From Candidatus Hodarchaeota archaeon (GTDB taxonomy: Archaea; Asgardarchaeota; Lokiarchaeia; Sigyniarchaeales; SOKP01), in contig JBHLKM010000001.1 of the NCBI GenBank assembly GCA_048886685.1, forward strand, positions 96,001 to 160,000: DNA of 64,000 bases, given 5' to 3'. The position numbers and the translations under genes were made by a program. This document shows, piece after piece, positions 7,656-38,256 of this stretch (positions within the stretch are counted from its first letter, which is position 1; every line of letters starts with the position of its first letter). The notes under the pieces are model-generated. The model had not been told where the DNA came from, did not search any database, and saw only the letters and a program-made list of their open reading frames with translations.

Positions 7656-10175
7656 TCAATCAATTAGAGGTAGAAAGACAAAAAATGTTGTTCCTTTCTC
7701 TAATTCACTTTCAACGAAAATTTTCCCCTTATGAGCTTCAATTAAATCTTTTACTATAGCTAGCCCTAATCCCGTTCCAGAAATTTCATTAACATTGCTA
7801 GAACGGAAAAAACGTTCAAATATATGAGGAATATCCTCCTTTGGGATACCACGACCATGATCTCTGAACTTAAAGAGAATGCCTGGACTTTTATTCGGGT
7901 TATATTGGCCTTGGTAATCCTTAAGAGCCTGAATTTCTATTTTTGAATTTTCCTTCGAATATTTAATTGCGTTATCAATAATAATTCGAAAAATTTGGTC
8001 GACTCTTTTTAAATCACCTTTTAAACGAATAGTTTCATCTATATTCATTTCAAAACGGATATTCTTTTCTTTTCCGATTGGTTCTAAGAGATATAAAATC
8101 TCCTTAATTATCTCTAATGGACTATATTCTTCCCATCCCAATTCTAATCGTTTTTCATCTATTCTTGAAATAAGTAAAATATCATCACTCAATTCATTTA
8201 GCAATTGGGCGTTTCTAGAGATACCATCCATCAATTTTTTTTCCAAATCTTCTGTAAGTTCAGTTTTATGTTTAGAAAGATATTCCAAAGACATTAAAAT
8301 TACTGTAATTGGAGTTCTTAATTCATGTGAAACGGTAGATATTAATTGAGATAATTTTTCTTCAGCCTTTTTCCTTTCTGTTATATCCATTCCATATATA
8401 TTTACATAATCCACATTTTCTACAGGGGTCACAACCAGCGTGTAAGTTCGGTCATGCAATTTAACATCAAATTCTTGGATCTCCTTATTTATTATGGAAT
8501 TTGTGATAGCTTCTTTTAATATCTCTGGAACTGCTCCACCTTCATAAATATTAAAAAGTGTTTTTCCAATTTTGTTAGAATAGATTACTTTTTGATTATT
8601 TACCCTTAAGACCGGATTTGGATTTTCGGAGGGAAATTTTGATAAATTTTGTATTTTTTCTTCTGACCTCTTTTTTTCGCTTATATCTCGAGCGATTGCC
8701 GAAGCCCCAATGATTTTATTATTTACATCTTTTATTGGTGAAATCGTAAGAGAGACATTAACTTTTGATCCATCTTTTCTAATTCTTTCAGTTTCAAAAC
8801 CTGCAATTTTTTCTCCCCTTTTAATTCTATTTAATATTGCAGAGATCTCTCTCTCACGGTTAGGAGGTGATATAAGCTCTATTGACTTTCCTATCATTTC
8901 TTCAGCAGAATAATAATAAATTTTCTCAGCTGCTTTATTCCAACTGGTAACTATTCCATCTAATGTTTTACCTATTATAGCATCCTCTGATGATTCAACT
9001 ATAGAAGCTAATCTCGTCTTTAATTCTTCTGCTTTCTTTAGTTCTGTTATATCTCGAAAGGTAGATTGGAAATAAGACTTTTCAGATAGTTGGATTACCT
9101 TCATAATTACAAAAATATCTTTAATTTCTCCAATTTTAGTACGAAATTTTGTCTCAAAATCATCACGTCCTTCCCTTAGTATCTTTTCTACATGAGCTCT
9201 TGTCTCTGAAGGACCTTCTATAATATCATAATCATTAATTTTTAATTTTTCAAATTCTTTACGTGAATAGTCCAATAATTTATATGCAGCTTCATTAAAT
9301 TCAATTGGCGTAAAATTATCAAGCTCAAAAATTACAATTCCGTCAGGAGATTGTTCAAAAGCAGTATGATAACGATCCTCTGCTTCTTTAATTTTTCGAA
9401 ATAATAAATTAAAGGGTTTCTTTATTCCAATTTGAATAATGGATTTGTACAGAAGATAAAAGGCGATTATTTTAAAGATATGCCCAACAACGTTAGAAAA
9501 ATCATAAACTCCAATATAGAAGGTGAATGCTAATTCGGCTATGATGGTTGCTAAAATTGAACTAAAAATTAAATACAAAACTATTTTATCAAACTCAATG
9601 CTTTGTTTGAAAATAATTAATATGCAAATCAGGTATATGGAAATAATAATATATTCACTCACTATTTTAAATGGAGTTAACCCATCTATATAACAAATGG
9701 GAAATAATTCAGCAAAAATAAGAACTATCAGCACCAGTGTAACACCTAAATAAGAAAGGATAAGGAAAATTGGTTTTATGCTTCTCTTAATTACAAGTGA
9801 TGCCATTAAACATGAACCCGCTTGAAGATACCTTGCAGCAATCCATAGAGATGTTGGAAGATTAGAAGTATAACCTTCAAAAATATTCATACCGGTATAA
9901 GCTAAGGTATGAATCAGGTCAATAATCCCAATAAAAAGAGATGATATACCTAGAACCAAAAAAAAAGAATTTTTCATATATTTACGCGAGTTCCAACCTA
10001 CAAAAAACACACCACCAGCTATAACTATACTAAATACCTCAGCAATGCTATGGAATAACAAAAATTTATAAAATCTTGAAAAAAAGGTAAATAACAGAGC
10101 TATTGAAAAGATTATTATTTCAAATAATACTGGACTTATTCTGTGTAAGGTGGTTTGATTATTTTCATTCAACAT
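7656..10175 (-). CDS. Membrane sensor histidine kinase (MASE3 + PAS repeats + HisKA + HATPase)
   Basis: FHSIAEVFSIVIA multi-TM MASE3-like region, PAS/PAC repeats ending DIT/DIS, SHELRTP H-box, NAIKY, DHGRGI, GTGLGL. Confidence 0.93.
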   Translation of the reverse strand: MLNENNQTTLHRISPVLFEIIIFSIALLFTFFSRFYKFLLFHSIAEVFSIVIAGGVFFVGWNSRKYMKNSFFLVLGISSLFIGIIDLIHTLAYTGMNIFEGYTSNLPTSLWIAARYLQAGSCLMASLVIKRSIKPIFLILSYLGVTLVLIVLIFAELFPICYIDGLTPFKIVSEYIIISIYLICILIIFKQSIEFDKIVLYLIFSSILATIIAELAFTFYIGVYDFSNVVGHIFKIIAFYLLYKSIIQIGIKKPFNLLFRKIKEAEDRYHTAFEQSPDGIVIFELDNFTPIEFNEAAYKLLDYSRKEFEKLKINDYDIIEGPSETRAHVEKILREGRDDFETKFRTKIGEIKDIFVIMKVIQLSEKSYFQSTFRDITELKKAEELKTRLASIVESSEDAIIGKTLDGIVTSWNKAAEKIYYYSAEEMIGKSIELISPPNREREISAILNRIKRGEKIAGFETERIRKDGSKVNVSLTISPIKDVNNKIIGASAIARDISEKKRSEEKIQNLSKFPSENPNPVLRVNNQKVIYSNKIGKTLFNIYEGGAVPEILKEAITNSIINKEIQEFDVKLHDRTYTLVVTPVENVDYVNIYGMDITERKKAEEKLSQLISTVSHELRTPITVILMSLEYLSKHKTELTEDLEKKLMDGISRNAQLLNELSDDILLISRIDEKRLELGWEEYSPLEIIKEILYLLEPIGKEKNIRFEMNIDETIRLKGDLKRVDQIFRIIIDNAIKYSKENSKIEIQALKDYQGQYNPNKSPGILFKFRDHGRGIPKEDIPHIFERFFRSSNVNEISGTGLGLAIVKDLIEAHKGKIFVESELEKGTTFFVFLPLID

Positions 10176-10254
10176 TTTTGGATATCTTTATCTATAAATA
10201 TCTAAAATTTGCACTTAATTTATAAATAGCTTTAAATTTTTTTTTAAAAAATGA

Positions 10255-10803
10255 TTAAGTGATTGTAGATTTCTCAAATGTTGCATATATTGATGTTTTA
10301 TGTAGTGAATAAATTAAATTTGGGGGAATTACTTCCTTGATCTTCGTAATCAAGCCATCAATGATAATTTCATTTAATTCTTGATCAAATTCTAGGTCTG
10401 GATCATATTTATGAAGAAAAATGGAAAAATCAATTTCATTGAGGTTTTTAATTGCATTTATCATTTTTTTTAGGTAACTGATTGCGAGATTATATCGTTT
10501 TGTATCTTGAACATCAAAAACATATATTATTTTTTTAGTCCCTCTCAAAATATTTTCTATATTTTTAAAATACTCATCATGATATGCTTCTTGACCCCCA
10601 AGATCCCAGATAGCATATTTCGAGTCTAAGGCTTCAAATCGTTCTATTTCTAAACCTCTTGTAGGATTTGGGAAATTAAACGCAGATAATCCCTTGATTC
10701 CTTTCAAACATTTTAATATCGAAGTCTTACCACCATTATCTAAACCTATCAATAAAATTTTTATTGAATCTTCTGATGAGTCAATATAATTTGTATTATT
10801 CAT
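10255..10803 (-). CDS. Small GTPase, Arf/Rag-like
   Basis: G1 GLDNGGKTS, G2 PTRG, G3 DLGGQ, G4 HKYD, G5 TSI. Confidence 0.92.
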   Translation of the reverse strand: MNNTNYIDSSEDSIKILLIGLDNGGKTSILKCLKGIKGLSAFNFPNPTRGLEIERFEALDSKYAIWDLGGQEAYHDEYFKNIENILRGTKKIIYVFDVQDTKRYNLAISYLKKMINAIKNLNEIDFSIFLHKYDPDLEFDQELNEIIIDGLITKIKEVIPPNLIYSLHKTSIYATFEKSTIT

Positions 10804-30314: not shown

Positions 30315-31451
30315 TTAATATTTTGAAGGAGTCTTTGATTTAATCTTATGTTTTGGAATAGTTTTGATCTTTCTTATTTCTCTTTCAAAATCTCGCTTTT
30401 CATTTAGAAATCTTTGTTTATCTTTTTCTAGCTTTTCTCTTTCACGTTTAATAGTGTTTTTTTCGCTTTCCAATAATGTTTTTTCTTTTGCTAATTGTTT
30501 ATATTCATTATTTAGTTTTCTAAGCTTTTCTTCTAAATTCGGAATTTTATTGGTTAAAGAGTAATATGTATCTTCTGCTCGAGGAATTTTTCTTTCTAAT
30601 TCTTTATACCTTGCTTCTTGTTGTCGCTTTCTATTCTCCGAATCTCTTACTTCTCTTTCAACCTTATCCCTATAATTTTTTAAATCTGCTTTTTTCTTAT
30701 CAATTTCGCGGGCTTTAAGATCTAAATTTTGCTTTTCATATCGTGTTTTTTCTCTTTCTTCTTTTAGTTTTCTCTTTGCATCAGCTATTCGATTCTTTTC
30801 ATCAGTAATCTCCCTTTTTTTATTATTTACTTCTCTTTCCAAATTATCTCTTTCTCTAGTTAGATTTTTAATTTCATTTCTTAAATCCATTAATTTATCC
30901 TCTAAATCTTTGTTAGTTCTTTCTAAAGCACTTTCTCTTCTTTCCATGCCCGGAAGTTTAGTTTTAATTTCCTCTATGCGATTTTCTGTTCTTTCTCTTT
31001 CTCTCTCTAAATTACGCTTTTCTTTCCCTATTTCTTCACGTAATTTGTCTAATTTCTCTTGGAATTTCTCTAATTGAGCATTTTTTTCATCTAATTCTTC
31101 ATTTTTTCGTCTAAATTTATCTCTAAATTGCCTTTCTTTGATAGCTAATTCGTTCTTATTCTGTTCTAACTCATTTCTCGATTTTTTCAGCTCATTTCGT
31201 AAGTTATCCCTTCGTTCAAGAAGATTTTTAACTTCTAGTTCAATATCTTTTCTCTTCTTTTCGAGATCCTTTATATTATCATTGTAATTTTCAATTTGAT
31301 TAACAATTCTTTCCCATTCACTTTTTTCTTTATCTAAAGCAATTCTCTCCTTTTTTAATTTTTTTAACAGCTTTTTATCTGGGATCTCATCTATTTCTTC
31401 ATCTGGTGTTTTTTCTCGAATCTGATGTTTGGGAATAGGTTTTTCATTCAT
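30315..31451 (-). CDS. Long coiled-coil protein with matching terminal IPKHxIxxKTP motifs
   Basis: About 330 aa of E/K/R/L heptads; N-terminal IPKHQIREKTP and C-terminal IPKHKIKSKTP. Confidence 0.8.
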   Translation of the reverse strand: MNEKPIPKHQIREKTPDEEIDEIPDKKLLKKLKKERIALDKEKSEWERIVNQIENYNDNIKDLEKKRKDIELEVKNLLERRDNLRNELKKSRNELEQNKNELAIKERQFRDKFRRKNEELDEKNAQLEKFQEKLDKLREEIGKEKRNLERERERTENRIEEIKTKLPGMERRESALERTNKDLEDKLMDLRNEIKNLTRERDNLEREVNNKKREITDEKNRIADAKRKLKEEREKTRYEKQNLDLKAREIDKKKADLKNYRDKVEREVRDSENRKRQQEARYKELERKIPRAEDTYYSLTNKIPNLEEKLRKLNNEYKQLAKEKTLLESEKNTIKREREKLEKDKQRFLNEKRDFEREIRKIKTIPKHKIKSKTPSKY

Positions 31452-31667
31452 AAATGCTCATTTATTATCTAATTTTGCTAATAAATTCATATTAATCCTA
31501 ACTCTAAAGTGTTTTGTATTTGAAATTGTATTAATTAAATTTTTCTATGGGTAGAATCGATTTATATATTAATTATACCTTCTATTATTTCTATAAAGAA
31601 TATACAAAAAACAATTGACATAATCACTAAAATTAATTATTTTAATAAGAAAGTAGGTGTTGAAATA

Positions 31668-32051
31668 ATGGGTTATGATGATGAGTTTGATGAGGAATTT
31701 GATGAAGAATTAGACGAGGATTTAGATGAAGATTTAGAAGAACCTTCTACAAAGACTCCCGAAGAAGTAGTTGAATCCAAAACTCCCGCAGTTATTACTG
31801 AAGGCAAAAAGATTTCTGTATATTTCATGTCAACTATTGGACCTGGCGAAAAAAAACAGAAATTAAATGTAAATACGGGCAACAATGTTGGGGATGTTAA
31901 AGAAACGGTAGCAAACTTATTTGGATTAGATCCGGCTGATTTTCATTTATCATCGGGTGGAGTTACTATGGATGAGGGTTCATTTTTAAAAGATTATAAT
32001 ATAAGTGATGGCGATGACATATTATTAATTCCAGCAAGTACAGCTGGTTAA
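31668..32051 (+). CDS. Ubiquitin-like protein 1 with acidic N-terminal tail, C-terminus ...IPASTAG
   Basis: Beta-grasp pattern (V.DVK..VA..FG, L..GG, L.DYNI.DGD.I.L); AGGTG RBS; next to the E1/E2 genes. Confidence 0.88.
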   Translation: MGYDDEFDEEFDEELDEDLDEDLEEPSTKTPEEVVESKTPAVITEGKKISVYFMSTIGPGEKKQKLNVNTGNNVGDVKETVANLFGLDPADFHLSSGGVTMDEGSFLKDYNISDGDDILLIPASTAG

Positions 32052-32095
32052 AATTTTAGGAAATAGTAAATTGCTTTAAATATCATTTACTTTTT

Positions 32096-32890
32096 TTATC
32101 CTCTATCTTTTCTTGAGGGAATTAGAGCTATTTCATCATCATCTTCTAAATTAAAGTCTTTTATTTGTGAGGTTTCGTCTAATAATATCCCTCCTGAAGA
32201 GAGTAGAAAACTTTCTAGATTATAATCAAATAACCTTCCAATTTTTTCTTTGATAATACCAACTAATTCACTAGTATCTATTATTATTATTTTTGTTTTA
32301 TCACCTGCCTCAACTAATGATCTTATGTAAACACGGATTTGGTCTTCAGTATCAAAAGTGTTTATAATTGGTGGATAAGTAATGTTCTCATCAGTTATAT
32401 CTCTATTTCTCAACATATTTTCAATTAATGTTTTTCTCTCATTTGAGTCAAAATAAAGCATTTCCCGAATAAAAAAAATCTTGTCCATTTTTGATAAATT
32501 TAGTAGATTTATTTTATTTATTTCTTCTTGACTAAAAACTGAAAAAATGTACTTATCGATTATTGTCATATCCTTATAGGATTCATTGCTTTCAACATAT
32601 TCTTTAATTTGAGGCATTGCATCAATATATTCTTCAATTATTTCAGATGATTTCATTTTAATTGATTTTGGTTCAGGTAAATATTTTTTTTTCTTAAATT
32701 TATCATCCCAACTACCTTTAGAATGGATAACTGTATACACAGTACTAGTAGAAAGTACTGAAACACTACCTATTGATATAATAAAGAATAGGGAATAATT
32801 TTCTATATGAAATAGGAAAAAAGAGGCATAAATCAAAATACAAACTGTATAAAGAGCAATAACAATTAAAATTCTATTTTTTTTCCTCAT
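32096..32890 (-). CDS. 2-TM membrane protein with C-terminal ubiquitin-like domain
   Basis: Two N-terminal TM helices; C-terminal LSSGGILLDE..IKDFNLEDDDEIALIP clearly homologous to the flanking Ubls; ends in Gly. Confidence 0.8.
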   Translation of the reverse strand: MRKKNRILIVIALYTVCILIYASFFLFHIENYSLFFIISIGSVSVLSTSTVYTVIHSKGSWDDKFKKKKYLPEPKSIKMKSSEIIEEYIDAMPQIKEYVESNESYKDMTIIDKYIFSVFSQEEINKINLLNLSKMDKIFFIREMLYFDSNERKTLIENMLRNRDITDENITYPPIINTFDTEDQIRVYIRSLVEAGDKTKIIIIDTSELVGIIKEKIGRLFDYNLESFLLSSGGILLDETSQIKDFNLEDDDEIALIPSRKDRG

Positions 32891-32975
32891 GATTTTTTAA
32901 TTAGATTGTTTTCTGAATTTAAAATATATAATTTAAAATTTAAATGAGATTGGAATAAAATTGAAGTTTTTATCT

Positions 32976-33647
32976 TTAATCGCCTTGAATTAAATTTTTA
33001 ACCTTTATATAATTCTTTACATCAAATTTGAACAGTTTTCTTTTATTGTCTTTCTCAATATTTACTAATTTCAGATCTGTTAAGATACCTAAATATTTTT
33101 TAATTGTGTTATGATTTTTTTTCATCCCAGATGCAATTTCTGTAATTTTTAATGCTTTATTCTCTTGCCTCATAAAATCAATTATTTCTTGAAGAATTTG
33201 TTTCCGCAAATAATAGTATAGGTCATCATATTTAGGATTTGAATCAAATTTAAAGAAAATTCTATGATTGTTGATTTGCTTTGATCTTACGAATTGGAAT
33301 TTTTCTAAACATGATAAGTGCCATAAAGCTTGATTACTTCCGATTTGCAGAACTTTCATTATTTCATTAATATTTGATGGATTCTTTTTAATGTAATTAA
33401 AAATTTCATTTCTTTTAGGATGTTCTATAATGTTATTTTTCATTAATCTGGTACCAGGAAGAATAACTCTTCGTTTAATTAAATCTTTTAAGATAAGCTC
33501 TATTCTATTCTCGTTTATATTAGGATTATACCTTACCCTATTATTAATAAATGATATAATTTCTCTTAGGGAAAAGAAGGTCTTTTTCGCTAAATATTCT
33601 TCTACTAATTCAAGAACAACAGATTCAGCATTATCCAGAGAATTCAT
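32976..33647 (-). CDS. Tandem winged-helix transcriptional regulator
   Basis: R..IF.YIK.NP..INEI...WHL..LE and second HTH ITEIA...HNTIKKYL. Confidence 0.8.
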   Translation of the reverse strand: MNSLDNAESVVLELVEEYLAKKTFFSLREIISFINNRVRYNPNINENRIELILKDLIKRRVILPGTRLMKNNIIEHPKRNEIFNYIKKNPSNINEIMKVLQIGSNQALWHLSCLEKFQFVRSKQINNHRIFFKFDSNPKYDDLYYYLRKQILQEIIDFMRQENKALKITEIASGMKKNHNTIKKYLGILTDLKLVNIEKDNKRKLFKFDVKNYIKVKNLIQGD

Positions 33648-33921
33648 GAGCTTATAATTTTATTGTGTTAAAAATTTTGGTCTTGTAAATTTGTATTCTC
33701 TTTAAAGCAACATTTTATTGAATATATATAATAATAGGCATTCATACAATTTATAATATAATTTCTTATAAGTCTTAATTTGCTCCATCTCATTTTTGAT
33801 ATAACCGCAAAAAACTTCAAAATCATTCCAAAGGATTTTATATTATCTTTTTAATGCGATTTTATTAAGTTAATAAAAAATAACAAATAACAAAAAAAAA
33901 TAAAAAAAAGGAGTGTTTTAA

Positions 33922-34254
33922 ATGAGTTTTGATGAATTTGAGGAGGACTTAGGTGAGGAGGAACCTTTAAAATCTAAAACTCCCGCCACTAAAACCCCTT
34001 CCACAGGAAAAAAACTTACTTTATATTTCATGTCAACTATTGGTCCTGGTGAAAAGAAGGAAAAATTAACAGTAAATGACAGTAATCAAGTAAGAGATAT
34101 TAAGCGAACTTTAGGTAATCTATATGGACTTGATCCTAATGACTTTCATTTATCTTCAGGTGGAGTAACAATGGATGAAAATAGTTCTTTAAGAGACTAT
34201 AATGTAAACGATGGCGATGATATTCTTTTGATCCCTGCGAGTACTGCGGGGTAA
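33922..34254 (+). CDS. Ubiquitin-like protein 2 with acidic N-terminal tail, C-terminus ...IPASTAG
   Basis: 62/82 aa identical to Ubl1 over the folded domain (hand count); AGGAG RBS; first gene of the E1-E2-JAB-E3 run. Confidence 0.9.
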   Translation: MSFDEFEEDLGEEEPLKSKTPATKTPSTGKKLTLYFMSTIGPGEKKEKLTVNDSNQVRDIKRTLGNLYGLDPNDFHLSSGGVTMDENSSLRDYNVNDGDDILLIPASTAG

Positions 34255-34287
34255 ACTTATATAATTTTTTTCATAAAATATAATATG

Positions 34288-34313
34288 AGGGCTTTAAGCC
34301 CTTACCCTTTTTT
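34288..34313 (+). terminator. Hairpin plus T-tract between Ubl2 and E1
   Basis: AGGGCTT-T-AAGCCCT followed by a T6 run. Confidence 0.45.
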
Positions 34314-34333
34314 ATTTATTATTGGTGATAATA

Positions 34334-35557
34334 TTGAAAAAGAGTTCAGATTTTTTTAGTAAAGACCTAACATCGGAAGAAAGAAATTTATATGACCGAC
34401 AATTTAGACTTGAAGGATGGTCACAGAAACTAGTAAAAAATTCAAGAGTTTTAATGGTAGGGGTCGGGGGATTAGGGTGTGAAATTGCCAAGAACCTAGC
34501 AATGTTAGGTGTGGGCCATATAGATTTAGTAGATTTAGATATTATAGAACATTCAAATTTAAATCGTCAAATTTTATTCGCAGGTGCTAAGTTGGGAGAA
34601 CCTAAAGCGATAGTAGCAGCAAAAAAATTGATTGAAATTAATCCGAATATAATTATTAAAGGATATCATAGTTCCCTAGAAAGATTGGATCCAGCATTAT
34701 ATCAAGCTGCTGATGTCGTCGTAGGTGGTCTTGACTCCATGAACGCTCGGTTGAATTTAAATGCTCAATGTATAAGATTTAGAAAACCGTTAGTAGATGG
34801 AGGTGTATCAGGTTATCATGGTCACGTTTATACAGTTTTTCCTTACAAAAATGCGTGTTATGAATGCAATCCACTCCCAGTAGGAGAAAATGATGAGATG
34901 GCAGCATGTACAGTCGTAGGTGTGCCAAGAAAAAGAATCCATTGCGTTTTCAAAGGAGATATGGCCTTTAAGGAAGAATTTGACAGGGATCCTAATCCAA
35001 AGAATATTAGTGATATAAAATTTATTCAAAAAATTGCTAACGAACTAGTAGATAAACACAACTTTCCTCCTGAGTATACTGAAGATGATATAGTTAAAAT
35101 TATTGATAGGCATGATCCTGGAATTATAACCATCAATGCTGTCATTTCTGCATTACAATCACATGAAGTTGTAAAAATCCTTCATTGGAAAAAAGGTCAT
35201 AAGGGTTTAGGTGAACCAATTAAATCCTACGTTATTTTCAATGCTATAACAATGATGTTTTATCATATTGAAAAGAAAAGAAATCCAGAATGTTCTCAAT
35301 GCGGGAAAAATGTTCGAAGATTCGTAGTCAAGTTGAAAAGGAGTTCTCCATGTATTAATATAATAAAAACCTTAGAAAATTATGGCTTTAAATTAAACCC
35401 TGATCTGGAACCCGTTATAACATTACTGGATTTTAATGACGTCAAGATGATTGATTTAGAACAGAATCCAATTGACAATAATTTACGAAATTATGAATTT
35501 ATGACAATTGCAGGCTTTATAGAAGGAGAAATTTTTGTAACCTTAAAATTAAAATAA
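34334..35557 (+). CDS. Ubiquitin-like activating enzyme E1 (ThiF/UBA family, UBA2/UBA3-like)
   Basis: YDRQ, GVGGLGCE, D.D.IE.SNLNRQ, CYEC, catalytic ACTVVGVPRKRIHC, PGIITINAVIS, CSQC; TTG start 5 nt after GGTGA. Confidence 0.93.
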   Translation: MKKSSDFFSKDLTSEERNLYDRQFRLEGWSQKLVKNSRVLMVGVGGLGCEIAKNLAMLGVGHIDLVDLDIIEHSNLNRQILFAGAKLGEPKAIVAAKKLIEINPNIIIKGYHSSLERLDPALYQAADVVVGGLDSMNARLNLNAQCIRFRKPLVDGGVSGYHGHVYTVFPYKNACYECNPLPVGENDEMAACTVVGVPRKRIHCVFKGDMAFKEEFDRDPNPKNISDIKFIQKIANELVDKHNFPPEYTEDDIVKIIDRHDPGIITINAVISALQSHEVVKILHWKKGHKGLGEPIKSYVIFNAITMMFYHIEKKRNPECSQCGKNVRRFVVKLKRSSPCINIIKTLENYGFKLNPDLEPVITLLDFNDVKMIDLEQNPIDNNLRNYEFMTIAGFIEGEIFVTLKLK

Positions 35558-35666
35558 ACGGTTTAGCAAAAATGTATTTTATAAAAATTTAATGAAATAA
35601 TTAAAAATATAACTATAAATTTAGATATTTAAAGTAAATAATAAGAAAATCTAAAGGGTTGAGAGT

Positions 35667-36194
35667 ATGAGTATAAGAAGTAGTCGAATCTCACAAGATT
35701 TTGCTGGATTAAAAAAATTATATAAACAAGGAACAATTGTTCAGTTAAAACCATTTAATCCTCAAAGAAAGAGTATTGATCATTTAGCAATAACTATTAA
35801 AGGACCTAAGGGTACCGCTTATGCAGGTGGTCTTTTTAAATTAGAAATGAAATTCCCTGCTCAGTATCCTAGGCAACCACCTTTTGTTAGATTACATACT
35901 CCAATTTGGCATCCAAATTTCTGGGCAAAACCGAATGAATATAAAGGACAGAGAAATATTTGTTTAGCGTTAGTAGATCCATCTTTAGTTGGAAAAAAAG
36001 GTGGGTGGAGTCCATCAAAAACAGCTGTTACTGTCGTTCAGGCTATAATTGCGATGTTAAATACACGAGGCAAGTATGTAAATCCAACTGATGTTTTCAA
36101 TAAGAAAGCAGCGATAGAGATGATGAAAAATCAGAAGTTTTTTGAGAAAAAAGTGAAAAATCTCGTTAAAAAGTATGCTAATAAGAAGTGGTGA
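35667..36194 (+). CDS. Ubiquitin-conjugating enzyme E2 (UBC fold)
   Basis: GPKGTAYAGGLF, FP.QYP..PP, WHPN...ICL, WSP. Confidence 0.93.
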   Translation: MSIRSSRISQDFAGLKKLYKQGTIVQLKPFNPQRKSIDHLAITIKGPKGTAYAGGLFKLEMKFPAQYPRQPPFVRLHTPIWHPNFWAKPNEYKGQRNICLALVDPSLVGKKGGWSPSKTAVTVVQAIIAMLNTRGKYVNPTDVFNKKAAIEMMKNQKFFEKKVKNLVKKYANKKW

Positions 36195-37021
36195 AAAATA
36201 AAATGGGAGAAGAAAATTCACATATAGACTCTATTAAAGAAACAATAAAATTGAAAATTAAAGACATAATAAAGAAGGAGTTGTTAGAGGAAATTTATGA
36301 AGAATTAAAATTAGAAGAAAAAGAATTAGTTAATGAAATTAGTTCGATGATTTCTAAAAAAAGTCCTGAAAGACAAACGATTAAGCATTCAGCTACCATT
36401 CCCACCAAATCAGAGACAATAAAAGTAGAGGAAAAAAGTATTGATGAAGATAAAATAGAAAAAGAGGTATACATTTCTGTTAAAGCAATTCTAAAAGTGG
36501 CAAGTCATGCGCTTAAATATGCGAATCCTAAAATTCCTAGACAGAGTTGGGTAGAAGTAATAGGGTTACTTGCAGGAAAGGTAGATGATAAGAATGGCAT
36601 TTTACATATTGAGGATTACTATCCTATGGGTCATGGAACAGCAGTTTATGCCGAAATAAAAGATTATAGAAACTATGCTAGAGCTTTCCAAGATATTAAA
36701 AAACAAAAGTTATTTATCTGTGGTTGGGCTCATAGTCATCCTTCTTACGGATGCTTTATGTCTAGTGAAGATATTGGTACTCAATCAAGATATCAAAAAC
36801 TTTGGAACAAAGCTGTTGCCCTTGTTATCGATCCATACCTTATTGATGGAACATCAGCTGGTTTTGAGATTTATCGAGCGGATTTAACCACAAAGAGTTG
36901 GTACCCTTTAGTTTATGGCATTAAAGGGTCATTAGACATTCGCATGCTCCCAGAAATACTAAATTTTATGAATCCGATAATTGAAGGGAAAGCAATTTAT
37001 CTTGAATATGATGAAAATTGA
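36188..37021 (+). CDS. JAB/MPN+ metalloprotease, Rpn11/CSN5-like
   Basis: VYIS..A.LK..SHA, EVIGLL.G, GWAHSHPSYGCFMSSED, AVALVIDP. Confidence 0.92.
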   Translation: MVKNKMGEENSHIDSIKETIKLKIKDIIKKELLEEIYEELKLEEKELVNEISSMISKKSPERQTIKHSATIPTKSETIKVEEKSIDEDKIEKEVYISVKAILKVASHALKYANPKIPRQSWVEVIGLLAGKVDDKNGILHIEDYYPMGHGTAVYAEIKDYRNYARAFQDIKKQKLFICGWAHSHPSYGCFMSSEDIGTQSRYQKLWNKAVALVIDPYLIDGTSAGFEIYRADLTTKSWYPLVYGIKGSLDIRMLPEILNFMNPIIEGKAIYLEYDEN

Positions 37022-37050
37022 AACAGATAAATTTTGGTGATTCTTAAACT

Positions 37051-38256
37051 GTGGCAAAAATTAAATCTGTGGCAATTGTTTTGGTTATATTTCTATTAAT
37101 AGGCATAATACATGGTATTATTTCAGATTCATTAAATGTATTTGTAAGTTGGTTATTGATTGGAATCTGGTTGATATTTTCTTTTAAGGTTCTAAAAAAT
37201 ATTAAGCAGTATCGTGAATATAATTCACCTCATAATACTGCATTTTTTACAATTGCTCCTGTCTTTTTTGGAATTTTTTATTCAATCTGGGGAAATTTTA
37301 CAGGTTTATTAGGTGAAAATCTTCTAGAAGATACAGATTTATATTTAAGCTGGTGGAGTATTCTTTTTGGATTTCCATATATATTATATGGTTCTATTTC
37401 TCTGTATCGTTGTTTCAAAAAATTTAATGTGATTTATTTTGGAACTAAATCAGTAAATGCACGTAAATTTGGATACATTTTAGGCATCTCAATCCTATCT
37501 TTTATACTTATTTATTGGATAAGTTTTTATTCACTTATCGACTTCTATGATTCTTATTTAGTACCTCTTCACTTTTTAGTAGATCTAAATCTTTTAATCT
37601 TGCTTATCAGTACAATATTAATAATAATTATCCCGGGATTGTTTGGAGCCCAAACAAGATTACCCCAATTAACAAGAGATTATATAACACAAAGAACAAA
37701 TCGATTAAACCAATTAACCTCACCTACAAGCAATGGAACTCCTAGAAGATATAGAGAGAGCGTTCGGAAAACAACAAGAACATCTCCAACTCCCATAACC
37801 AGAACTGTTACGAGTAGATCAAGTTCAATTAGCCATTCTTCAAGAACAACACCCACAATGCACAGTCGATCTACAACTTCAAGGTCCAAAACAGCTACTC
37901 GAACTGTAAGCAGAGGTTCGGCAGGAACGCAAGTAAGAAGCAAACAAAGCACCAAAAAGATAAGTAATTTTAATCTGTATAAACCAAGAGCGGCACGTCT
38001 GTCAACAGAGGATTTTAAATGTATCTTTTGTTTTAAATTACCGAAATTTCCTGAAGATAGGGGAAGAGGAATAATTTTGTGTCCTAATTGTCGATATCCT
38101 GCTCATGCAGACGAATTTAAAGATTGGTTACGAAGTTCAAACCTCTGTTCTCGATGCAACGCGCCAATTCCAGCCAGTTACAGAAAAAATCCTAAAGTAT
38201 TGACTATCAAAAATTATATAGTCGTAGTCAAGCATTTTGTAAATAATAGGAAATAA
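37051..38256 (+). CDS. Multi-pass membrane protein with S/T/R-rich linker and C-terminal RING-variant (putative E3 ligase)
   Basis: About 6 TM segments; C-x2-C-x16-C-x2-C-x4-H-x2-E-x3-W-x6-C-x2-C at 38020-38157; last gene of the E1-E2-JAB run. Confidence 0.8.
   Translation: MAKIKSVAIVLVIFLLIGIIHGIISDSLNVFVSWLLIGIWLIFSFKVLKNIKQYREYNSPHNTAFFTIAPVFFGIFYSIWGNFTGLLGENLLEDTDLYLSWWSILFGFPYILYGSISLYRCFKKFNVIYFGTKSVNARKFGYILGISILSFILIYWISFYSLIDFYDSYLVPLHFLVDLNLLILLISTILIIIIPGLFGAQTRLPQLTRDYITQRTNRLNQLTSPTSNGTPRRYRESVRKTTRTSPTPITRTVTSRSSSISHSSRTTPTMHSRSTTSRSKTATRTVSRGSAGTQVRSKQSTKKISNFNLYKPRAARLSTEDFKCIFCFKLPKFPEDRGRGIILCPNCRYPAHADEFKDWLRSSNLCSRCNAPIPASYRKNPKVLTIKNYIVVVKHFVNNRK

Follow-up and report, generated by a model that had tools for sequence, protein, structure and literature searches.

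Two described archaeal systems stand closest to the locus considered here. In the operon of Caldiarchaeum subterraneum, the genes for Rpn11, ubiquitin (Ub), a conjugating enzyme (E2), an activating enzyme (E1) and srfp are clustered (PMC5654768, PMC6043591), and Asgard archaea possess a ubiquitin–ESCRT system whose modifier ends in diglycine (diGly) (PMC9192718), of which a Helarchaeia cascade has also been reported (bioRxiv 10.1101/2023.07.25.550441). The reconstituted archaeal cascades of E1, E2 and ligase (E3) found in the literature all rely on diGly ubiquitin and small soluble RINGs. The present locus lies in a window of 64,000 nucleotides of DNA (GenBank assembly GCA_048886685.1, contig JBHLKM010000001.1, positions 96,001 to 160,000) from Candidatus Hodarchaeota archaeon, whose close relatives are Promethearchaeia (Lokiarchaeia) genomes. 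It encodes a ubiquitin-like protein (Ubl) that ends in Ala-Gly, an E1, an E2, a JAB/JAMM protease and a RING protein with six transmembrane (TM) helices. It is a real, conserved variant of the archaeal ubiquitin cascade that is probably active. The analysis establishes its genes and motifs, how they are conserved and distributed, and its separate place in the E2 phylogeny, and we consider it likely that the module constitutes a second, vertically conserved Asgard Ubl cascade acting at the cytoplasmic face of the membrane, apart from the diGly ubiquitin/ESCRT system.

With the archaeal Ub/E1/E2/RING/Rpn11 operons the locus shares a ubiquitin-family beta-grasp modifier and the motifs of E1, E2 and an Rpn11-like JAMM protease. 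As in Caldiarchaeum, the five functions are clustered, the modifier occurs in a pro-form, and the contact residues of the E2 loops and of the RING (Ile and Trp) are conserved. Three features go beyond the characterised systems, namely a modifier ending in Ala-Gly whose tail motif is conserved, a RING carried by a polytopic protein, and a neighbouring protein that shares the motif. The system would operate in the manner of ubiquitin or SUMO cascades, but the tests made here place it in none of the diGly, UFM1, SUMO and ERAD families. Set against the Caldiarchaeum operon, the modifier here ends in AG instead of GG and has an acidic tail with an SKTP motif, the E3 is a six-TM protein of 370–400 residues with a C4-H-E-C2 RING that lacks the linchpin Arg, and a Lys-rich, motif-bearing neighbour is conserved. 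The Asgard diGly system is found in the same organisms and uses the same enzyme classes, but the present locus has a separate E2 clade, a different Ubl gene and no ESCRT genes nearby. The core features, with their positions in the window, are the following.

33922–34254, plus strand: Ubl2, the operon modifier, with an acidic disordered tail, a beta-grasp domain and the C-terminus IPASTAG
33973–33984, plus strand: SKTP motif (K19) in the Ubl2 tail, a candidate acceptor lysine or docking motif
34286–34315, plus strand: GC hairpin and T-run 3' of the Ubl2 stop, a candidate internal terminator
34322–35557, plus strand: E1, UBA2/UBA1/UBA3-like, with GxGxxG, two CxxC pairs and the catalytic C196
35667–36194, plus strand: E2, with HPN, C99 and RING-contact loops (Y67-P68, P116-S117)
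36188–37021, plus strand: JAB/JAMM protease, Rpn11/CSN5-like, probable maturase and isopeptidase
37051–38256, plus strand: TM-RING, probable membrane E3, with six TM helices, a linker and a cytoplasmic RING-fold domain
38020–38157, plus strand: RING variant C4-H-E-C2 (C324, C327, C344, C347, H352, E355, C366, C369)

The conserved unit consists of five genes, Ubl-E1-E2-JAB-TM-RING, and is present in about 190 of 398 Asgard genomes from Loki-, Hel-, Borr-, Heimdall- and Hodarchaeal groups; of the 398, 192 carry the Ubl and 187 carry TM-RING, each gene in 36 of 85 genera and both in the same families. At the close loci that are long enough to be counted, E2, JAB and RING follow E1 in 58/59, 56/57 and 54/55 cases, respectively. 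The synteny of upstream genes among close relatives is not informative, because bystander genes are retained with nearly equal frequency. With regard to other orders and classes, the five genes are clustered in 19 out of 19 operons, and the flanking genes change; going by the database names of E2 clusters, the taxa of these distant operons include L. ossiferum, Helarchaeota, Borrarchaeum, Heimdallarchaeaceae and Hodarchaeales. In the cultured L. ossiferum the operon corresponds to NEF87_002992-002996, and none of these locus tags turned up in the searched supplements to the paper on this organism. The operon E2 clade is likewise missing from five genomes that have no Ubl, so the module is retained or lost as a whole. 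The whole module is missing from two single-contig genomes of the same order (G143 and G135), though L. ossiferum has it. It was not found, with the queries used, in about 20 other families, a result whose reach is limited by incomplete genomes, and no relative was found in viral contigs.

This patchy, all-or-none distribution is what an antiviral conjugation system of the Bil/Bub type might show, in which virion proteins would be tagged or Ubl filaments built, with C-terminal Ubl fusions as payloads. Bacterial Bil systems likewise employ a JAB protease, which matures the Ubl, as well as E1, E2 and Ubl fusions (PMC11601596), and the present Ubl repeatedly occurs as a C-terminal fusion to other domains (Roadblock, HerA-like, vWA, Zn-ribbon). 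However, the operon is single-copy and keeps its place amid housekeeping genes across the family, E2 identity is 54–90% across classes, the E2 tree keeps Heimdallarchaeia together, and PADLOC scores are generic and at the domain level only. Furthermore, Bil and Bub have no E3, and are marked by a CEHH-type E2 and a bacterial E1, whereas E1, E2 and JAMM are here of eukaryotic type, the E2 is canonical and a RING gene belongs to the core. Membership of these systems was accordingly rejected, and an antiviral role seems very unlikely.

The modifier of the proposed cascade belongs to the ubiquitin family. Ubl2 matches the Pfam ubiquitin family at 1.4e-6, above the PF00240 cut-off, and its paralogue Ubl1 at 1.5e-5; the Ubl profile scores best with ubiquitin, and a fold search with the Ubl2 model returned Caldiarchaeum ubiquitin as the best match (E 8e-8), with a VIA Z of 13 to Ub and ISG15. 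The best sequence and fold matches of Ubl2 are ubiquitin, Caldiarchaeum Ub, ISG15, NEDD8 and SUMO, and UFM1 is not among them. Both free Ubls terminate in IPASTAG followed directly by the stop, with A109-G110 of Ubl2 in register with G75-G76 of ubiquitin. The C-terminal A-G is invariant in 60 Ubl2 orthologues, in place of the diglycine of archaeal Ub operons, and S107-T108-A109-G110 is invariant in 26 Ubls across classes, which supports the non-diGly Ubl proposed by the first-pass annotation, an earlier reading of the letters of this DNA.

The residues beyond the STAG glycine vary freely, with 1–8 extra residues in 15/60 Ubl2 and 6/43 Ubl1 orthologues, and head-to-tail poly-Ubl open reading frames (ORFs) join their units at STAG or SQAG. 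The propeptides and poly-Ubl genes imply cleavage after the STAG glycine, and such extensions and arrays are the pattern that would be expected of a precursor cut after Gly by the adjacent JAMM protease. The same propeptide logic has been demonstrated for Caldiarchaeum ubiquitin and Rpn11 (PMC5654768). In a first step, the JAMM protease would therefore cut after STAG to expose the glycine, and would later strip the tag from its targets. The poly-Ubl genes are a three-unit STAG array (P0254, L116:59-1177) and a two-unit array (P0255, L118:205-957), both most similar to Hodarchaeales Ubls and comparable to polyubiquitin genes; 83 Heimdallarchaeia genomes showed no array of this kind. Downstream of the Ubl2 stop, the hairpin and T-run recur in most close relatives. 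Paired positions make up 88% of the cells in its alignment, and there are no compensatory changes, so an internal terminator is only a candidate, which would favour Ubl over enzyme transcripts. A promoter scan remained at chance level (54 vs 47.6), and a search of sequencing runs listed no RNA data set containing the sequence.

The catalytic motifs of the three enzymes are intact. The E1 matches ThiF in Pfam at 2e-58 and scores between 1e-38 and 1e-35 against UBA2, UBA1 and UBA3 (best match UBA2, 2e-38) and 1e-14 against UBA5; C196 aligns with the catalytic Cys region of the SUMO E1, and GVGGLG and C196 are intact in 59/60 orthologues. The E2, whose orthologues include Lokiarch_29330 and NEF87_002994, matches UQ_con at 5e-26, with HPN and C99 invariant in 33 orthologues. 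The JAB protein matches its Pfam family at 1.4e-13 and has a complete JAMM motif that is closest to Rpn11, with E123/H182/H184/S192/D195 kept in 55/56 orthologues. The conserved catalytic motifs agree with the complete E1-E2-JAB set of the first-pass annotation, and its nine ORFs were likewise recovered with the same coordinates, strands and order. In a second step, as the intact motifs suggest, the E1 would adenylate the glycine and form a thioester at C196, from where the Ubl would pass to C99 of the E2. Identity with the UFM1 system was rejected, as the E1 is UBA2/UBA1/UBA3-like and not UBA5-type, and the E2 is a canonical UQ_con protein with HPN.

The E1 also scores high with MoeB/ThiF models, and the cofactor genes MptA, RibD and CofG/H flank the locus, as might be seen if the Ubl were a sulfur carrier of the ThiS/MoaD/Urm1 type and not a protein conjugate. 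This role is hardly credible in view of the E2, the RING and the ubiquitin-family fold, the UBA2-like catalytic-Cys region of the E1, and the lack of conservation of the flanking cofactor genes beyond the family.

The last gene of the operon, TM-RING, has no Pfam match. Its AlphaFold model (pTM 0.49) comprises six N-terminal helices (residues 1–197), a disordered linker rich in Ser, Thr and Arg (222–301) and a compact C-terminal domain, and basic residues are confined to alternate loops, which fits a topology with the N-terminus inside, six TM helices and the RING inside. Although no Foldseek match of the model reached E<=0.001, residues 315–401 align with RING/U-box chains at a Foldseek probability of <=0.92 but E>0.3, and the C-terminal domain shows a fold of the RING/U-box type (VIA Z 7.5, root-mean-square deviation (rmsd) 4.4, 75 residues aligned). 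In every full-length orthologue the RING is joined to six TM helices, unlike the small soluble RINGs of the characterised operons, and the polytopic RING protein of about six TM helices anticipated in the first pass is thus upheld by the helix model, the RING/U-box structural neighbours and the fitting charge bias. Prokaryotic RINGs fused to TM helices are reportedly already described by Burroughs and colleagues in 2011. A search of the ESM Atlas with the TM domain yielded nothing usable, though remote homology may still exist.

The sixth ligand position of the RING is Glu (E355) instead of Cys in 72/73 orthologues, leaving seven Cys/His ligands where eight are usual, and the canonical linchpin Arg is replaced by N, S or D after the last Cys. 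These features, together with an E2 that is unusually conserved and has lineage-specific insertions around its active site, and with a lysine motif in the modifier tail as in SUMO2/3, could be explained if the RING were a mere membrane anchor for the E2, or degenerate, and conjugation needed the E1 and E2 only, with the motif recognised directly by the E2, as in the case of Ubc9 and SUMO. We consider this unlikely, since the seven metal ligands, I325, W359 and E355 are invariant, TM-RING comes and goes together with the other module genes, and the E2 retains its RING-contact loops. I325 and W359 of the RING, with the E2 loop residues, match those required in the Caldiarchaeum system. A complex prediction of the E2, the RING domain and the Ubl tail scored 0.08, which is not evidence either way. 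Under the preferred reading as a ligase, the third step would be the binding of the charged E2 by the RING, tethered to its six-helix anchor by the long disordered linker, so as to promote transfer near the membrane, as fold, topology and gene linkage suggest. With regard to neighbours and copies of TM-RING, a second 5–6 TM protein of ~195 residues adjoins it in several Heimdallarchaeia (L103:6741-7328, L108:4318-4923, L115:3615-4202 and others); it has no Pfam match and was not found in the source genome with one query. In another locus a RING-only second copy lies directly 3' of TM-RING (L113:4490-5916), and similar extra copies occur in genus g11.

The nine genes fall into four orientation blocks, so they do not form a single transcription unit. 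The features outside the core are the following.

30315–31451, minus strand: coiled-coil protein, Lys/Glu-rich, with K-x-K-T-P motifs at both ends, candidate substrate
31404–31421, minus strand: N-terminal IREKTP motif (K14) of the coiled-coil protein
30327–30344, minus strand: C-terminal IKSKTP motif (K373) of the coiled-coil protein
31668–32051, plus strand: Ubl1, the Ubl2 paralogue, with the S[TI]AG end intact and a KTP tail
32096–32890, minus strand: TM-Ubl, with two TM helices, a small helical module and a degenerate Ubl copy, accessory
32976–33647, minus strand: tandem winged-helix (wHTH) protein, with two HTH Pfam matches, accessory

TM-Ubl, the wHTH protein and Ubl1, which is 72% identical to Ubl2 and a family-level paralogue, are later additions in a few genera. 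The Ubl domain of TM-Ubl (Pfam ubiquitin 6e-4, residues 197–256) is a long-branch copy of the operon modifier with 35% identity. The protein was also considered as a conjugatable membrane tag and rejected, since the AG end is kept in 0/45 orthologues and the terminal Gly of the TM-Ubl in the window (RKDRG) is shared by only 1/45 orthologues at loci of other genomes; KTP is never kept. The helical module in the middle of TM-Ubl is also found C-terminally in three other membrane proteins of the source genome, each of which forms a two-gene module with an adjoining tandem wHTH paralogue (C19:14957-18252, C24:6222-7775 and C3:255054-257506), with matches from 9e-8 down to 0.03, the weakest of which rests mainly on alignment and gene context. 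No usable match for this module was found in the ESM Atlas, although remote homology is still possible. These membrane-protein/wHTH pairs look like an undescribed family of membrane-tethered regulators. The wHTH/TM-Ubl pair is most plausibly a membrane sensor and its regulator, of a generic kind, which came to lie between two copies of the Ubl and acquired a Ubl domain. Putative feedback of this pair on the operon is possible, but the dedicated regulator envisaged in the first pass gives way to a late add-on from a recurrent pair.

The same evidence bears on a resemblance to endoplasmic-reticulum-associated degradation (ERAD), in which TM-RING would recognise and extract membrane proteins like Hrd1 or Doa10, with TM-Ubl as the counterpart of Usa1/HERP. 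Like Hrd1, Doa10/MARCH6 and gp78, TM-RING joins a polytopic domain to a cytoplasmic RING, its C4-H order resembles RING-CH, one lineage has a CDC48_N-vWA-Ubl fusion in its operon, and an HRD1 chain appears among the structural matches of the TM-RING model. However, that match (Z 6.4, rmsd 4.0, 110 residues aligned, rank 29) scores like those of unrelated helical bundles and lower than designed and repeat proteins, and no membrane E3 came out of a profile search of PDB sequences with TM-RING, though remote homology may still exist. TM-Ubl is found in 4/13 genera of the family and in 0/19 distant operons, which keep TM-RING, its domain order is TM and then Ubl, its Ubl derives from the operon modifier, and it is part of a recurrent pair; moreover, the conserved neighbour is a soluble Lys-rich protein, and no derlin, Hrd3 or Ufd1/Npl4 genes lie at the locus. 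The ERAD parallel drawn in the first pass is not supported, as no specific match to Hrd1 or Doa10 was found and TM-Ubl is not co-conserved; a proto-ERAD role appears distinctly unlikely, and the likeness to ERAD ligases is architectural only.

The conserved neighbour is the coiled-coil protein, whose gene is the sole upstream one to stay with the operon (45/46 close loci). It has homologues in the Loki, Hel and Borr groups, and homologues or K/P-rich counterparts in 17/19 distant operons. A K[TIV]P motif lies within its first 45 residues in 43/44 orthologues and within its last 30 in 41/44. In Heimdallarchaeia, an unrelated disordered K/P-rich protein with K-x-K-[IT]-P repeats adjoins the operon instead. 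The acidic tail of Ubl2 is predicted to be disordered, and its SKTP is present in 57/57 close orthologues and in at least 90% across classes. The motif is above shuffled expectation in 15/17 distant neighbours (p<0.05) and is not enriched genome-wide (SKTP, 15 observed and 11.6 expected); it is kept in disordered regions of two unrelated proteins. Two 810-residue proteins that contain two KTP motifs were discounted as chance occurrences, as their sequence resembles glycyl-radical enzymes. Since the K-x-K-[TI]-P motif is common to it and the Ubl tail, the coiled-coil protein is the best candidate substrate, and the co-encoded candidate substrate of the first pass remains plausible on account of its conserved place beside the operon and its motif.

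SUMO2/3 (K11) and Smt3 carry a conserved lysine motif in the disordered N-terminal tail of the modifier. The present system resembles SUMO in having such a tail with a lysine motif that is also found in the candidate substrate, and in an E1 whose best match is UBA2. It differs in its K-x-K-[TI]-P in place of psi-K-x-E, its JAMM in place of a Ulp cysteine protease and its AG end in place of diGly; membership of the SUMO system was rejected on these grounds. Given the constancy of Lys and Pro, the variation of Thr and the analogy to the SUMO tail, the motif may be an acceptor-lysine consensus, a reading that we favour over a phosphorylation site while holding it to be somewhat short of evenly balanced. 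Correspondingly, the fourth step of the proposed mechanism is tentative: the acceptor would be the lysine of hydrophobic-K-x-K-[TI]-P, in the Ubl tail, giving chains of the SUMO type, and in the Lys-rich neighbour, which would be a substrate or a scaffold. More doubtful still is a sequence-directed, SUMO-like second code in Asgards, including Hodarchaeales, in which a RING ligase anchored in the membrane would attach the Ala-Gly Ubl to lysines of K-x-K-[TI]-P sites, with chains growing through the Ubl tail and a coiled-coil or K/P-rich scaffold encoded alongside being modified at the membrane, and the N-terminal domains of Ubl fusions (Roadblock, HerA-like ATPase, CDC48_N-vWA, Zn-ribbon) would serve as covalent payloads.

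With regard to its separateness from the diGly system, the operon E2s form a clade (99/97 support) apart from the E2 adjoining diGly ubiquitin, and separate from both the short E2s, which include the Helarchaeal E2 beside diGly ubiquitin, and the C13-type E2s; the tree, which includes no eukaryotic rows and whose internal branches are long, is used for grouping only. The source genome also has a diGly Ubl on contig C5 (end TQAGGI), an orthologue of Lokiarch_37670, and a second E1/E2 pair on C13, which are probable partners of the C5 Ubl. The distinctness from the characterised diGly systems that was proposed in the first pass is therefore supported by the separate E2 clades and by the diGly Ubl elsewhere in the genome. 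Spang and colleagues reportedly described, in 2015, a Lokiarchaeum E1/E2/Rpn11 cluster, which we presume to be the present operon. Lokiarch_37670, ending in TQAGG, is the ubiquitin tested by Hatano et al. 2022 (PMC9192718), whose supplement already lists the operon E2 orthologues Lokiarch_29330, HeimAB125_09840, HeimC2_08360 and HeimC3_05760, so the cluster had been seen by annotation. The novelty that the first-pass annotation left open therefore holds in part only: no study of the Ala-Gly modifier, the membrane ligase or the motif was found in the literature, subscription papers being mostly outside the search. The C13 pair consists of an E2 and a 527-residue E1 (L064:6371-6889 and 9150-10733) beside a 2122-residue helical repeat protein, and a third cluster of the same genome (C11:510-2796) holds a VIGG-ending Ubl, a divergent E2-like protein, an E1 and a JAB.

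Several points weigh against a second Asgard cascade of the kind proposed. The poly-Ubl ORFs sit on short metagenome contigs without neighbouring genes. The TM-RING orthologues match zf-RING_2 and Prok-RING_1 below the curated Pfam cut-offs, and with Glu at ligand 6 and no canonical linchpin Arg the protein may be weak or atypical as a ligase, or serve only to anchor the E2. The motif was recognised only once the sequences had been inspected, in genomes that are related, and might serve for Thr-Pro phosphorylation or for docking instead. Additionally, the module is absent from many families, and the Borrarchaeum E2 is 73–75% identical to that of Loki, which leaves room for horizontal transfer.

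The module occurs in many Asgards, including the closest relatives of eukaryotes, and indicates that several features are older than eukaryotes and present in Heimdallarchaeia, namely Ubl pathways that run in parallel and have E1/E2 pairs of their own, precursors of the propeptide and poly-Ubl kind, and a RING on a polytopic membrane protein. The system is directly testable, since L. ossiferum, which is in culture, has intact genes, the soluble portions are of small size, and there are named candidates for the substrate and the acceptor lysine. Standard diGly proteomics would miss it, because trypsin would leave a 19-residue remnant.

The STAG-ending Ubl is also found outside the operon arrangement. 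In the source genome, a Roadblock domain is joined to it through a KSKTP linker, far from the operon (L065:7621-8454, contig C2). Further C-terminal Ubl fusions (L099:10072-11814, L100:1910-3718, L102:9691-11448, L098:7557-8237 and L119:1060-2007) have as partners a HerA-like ATPase in Borrarchaeum-type loci, CDC48_N with vWA, an unannotated domain and Zn-ribbon proteins, and the AG end is mostly intact in them. The CDC48_N-vWA-Ubl fusion is located in the operon, in one lineage only (L102, P0390). In Heimdallarchaeia, independent tandem duplications of the Ubl (L107, L108, L109 and L110) have one copy that diverges, and SKTP is lost in some of them.

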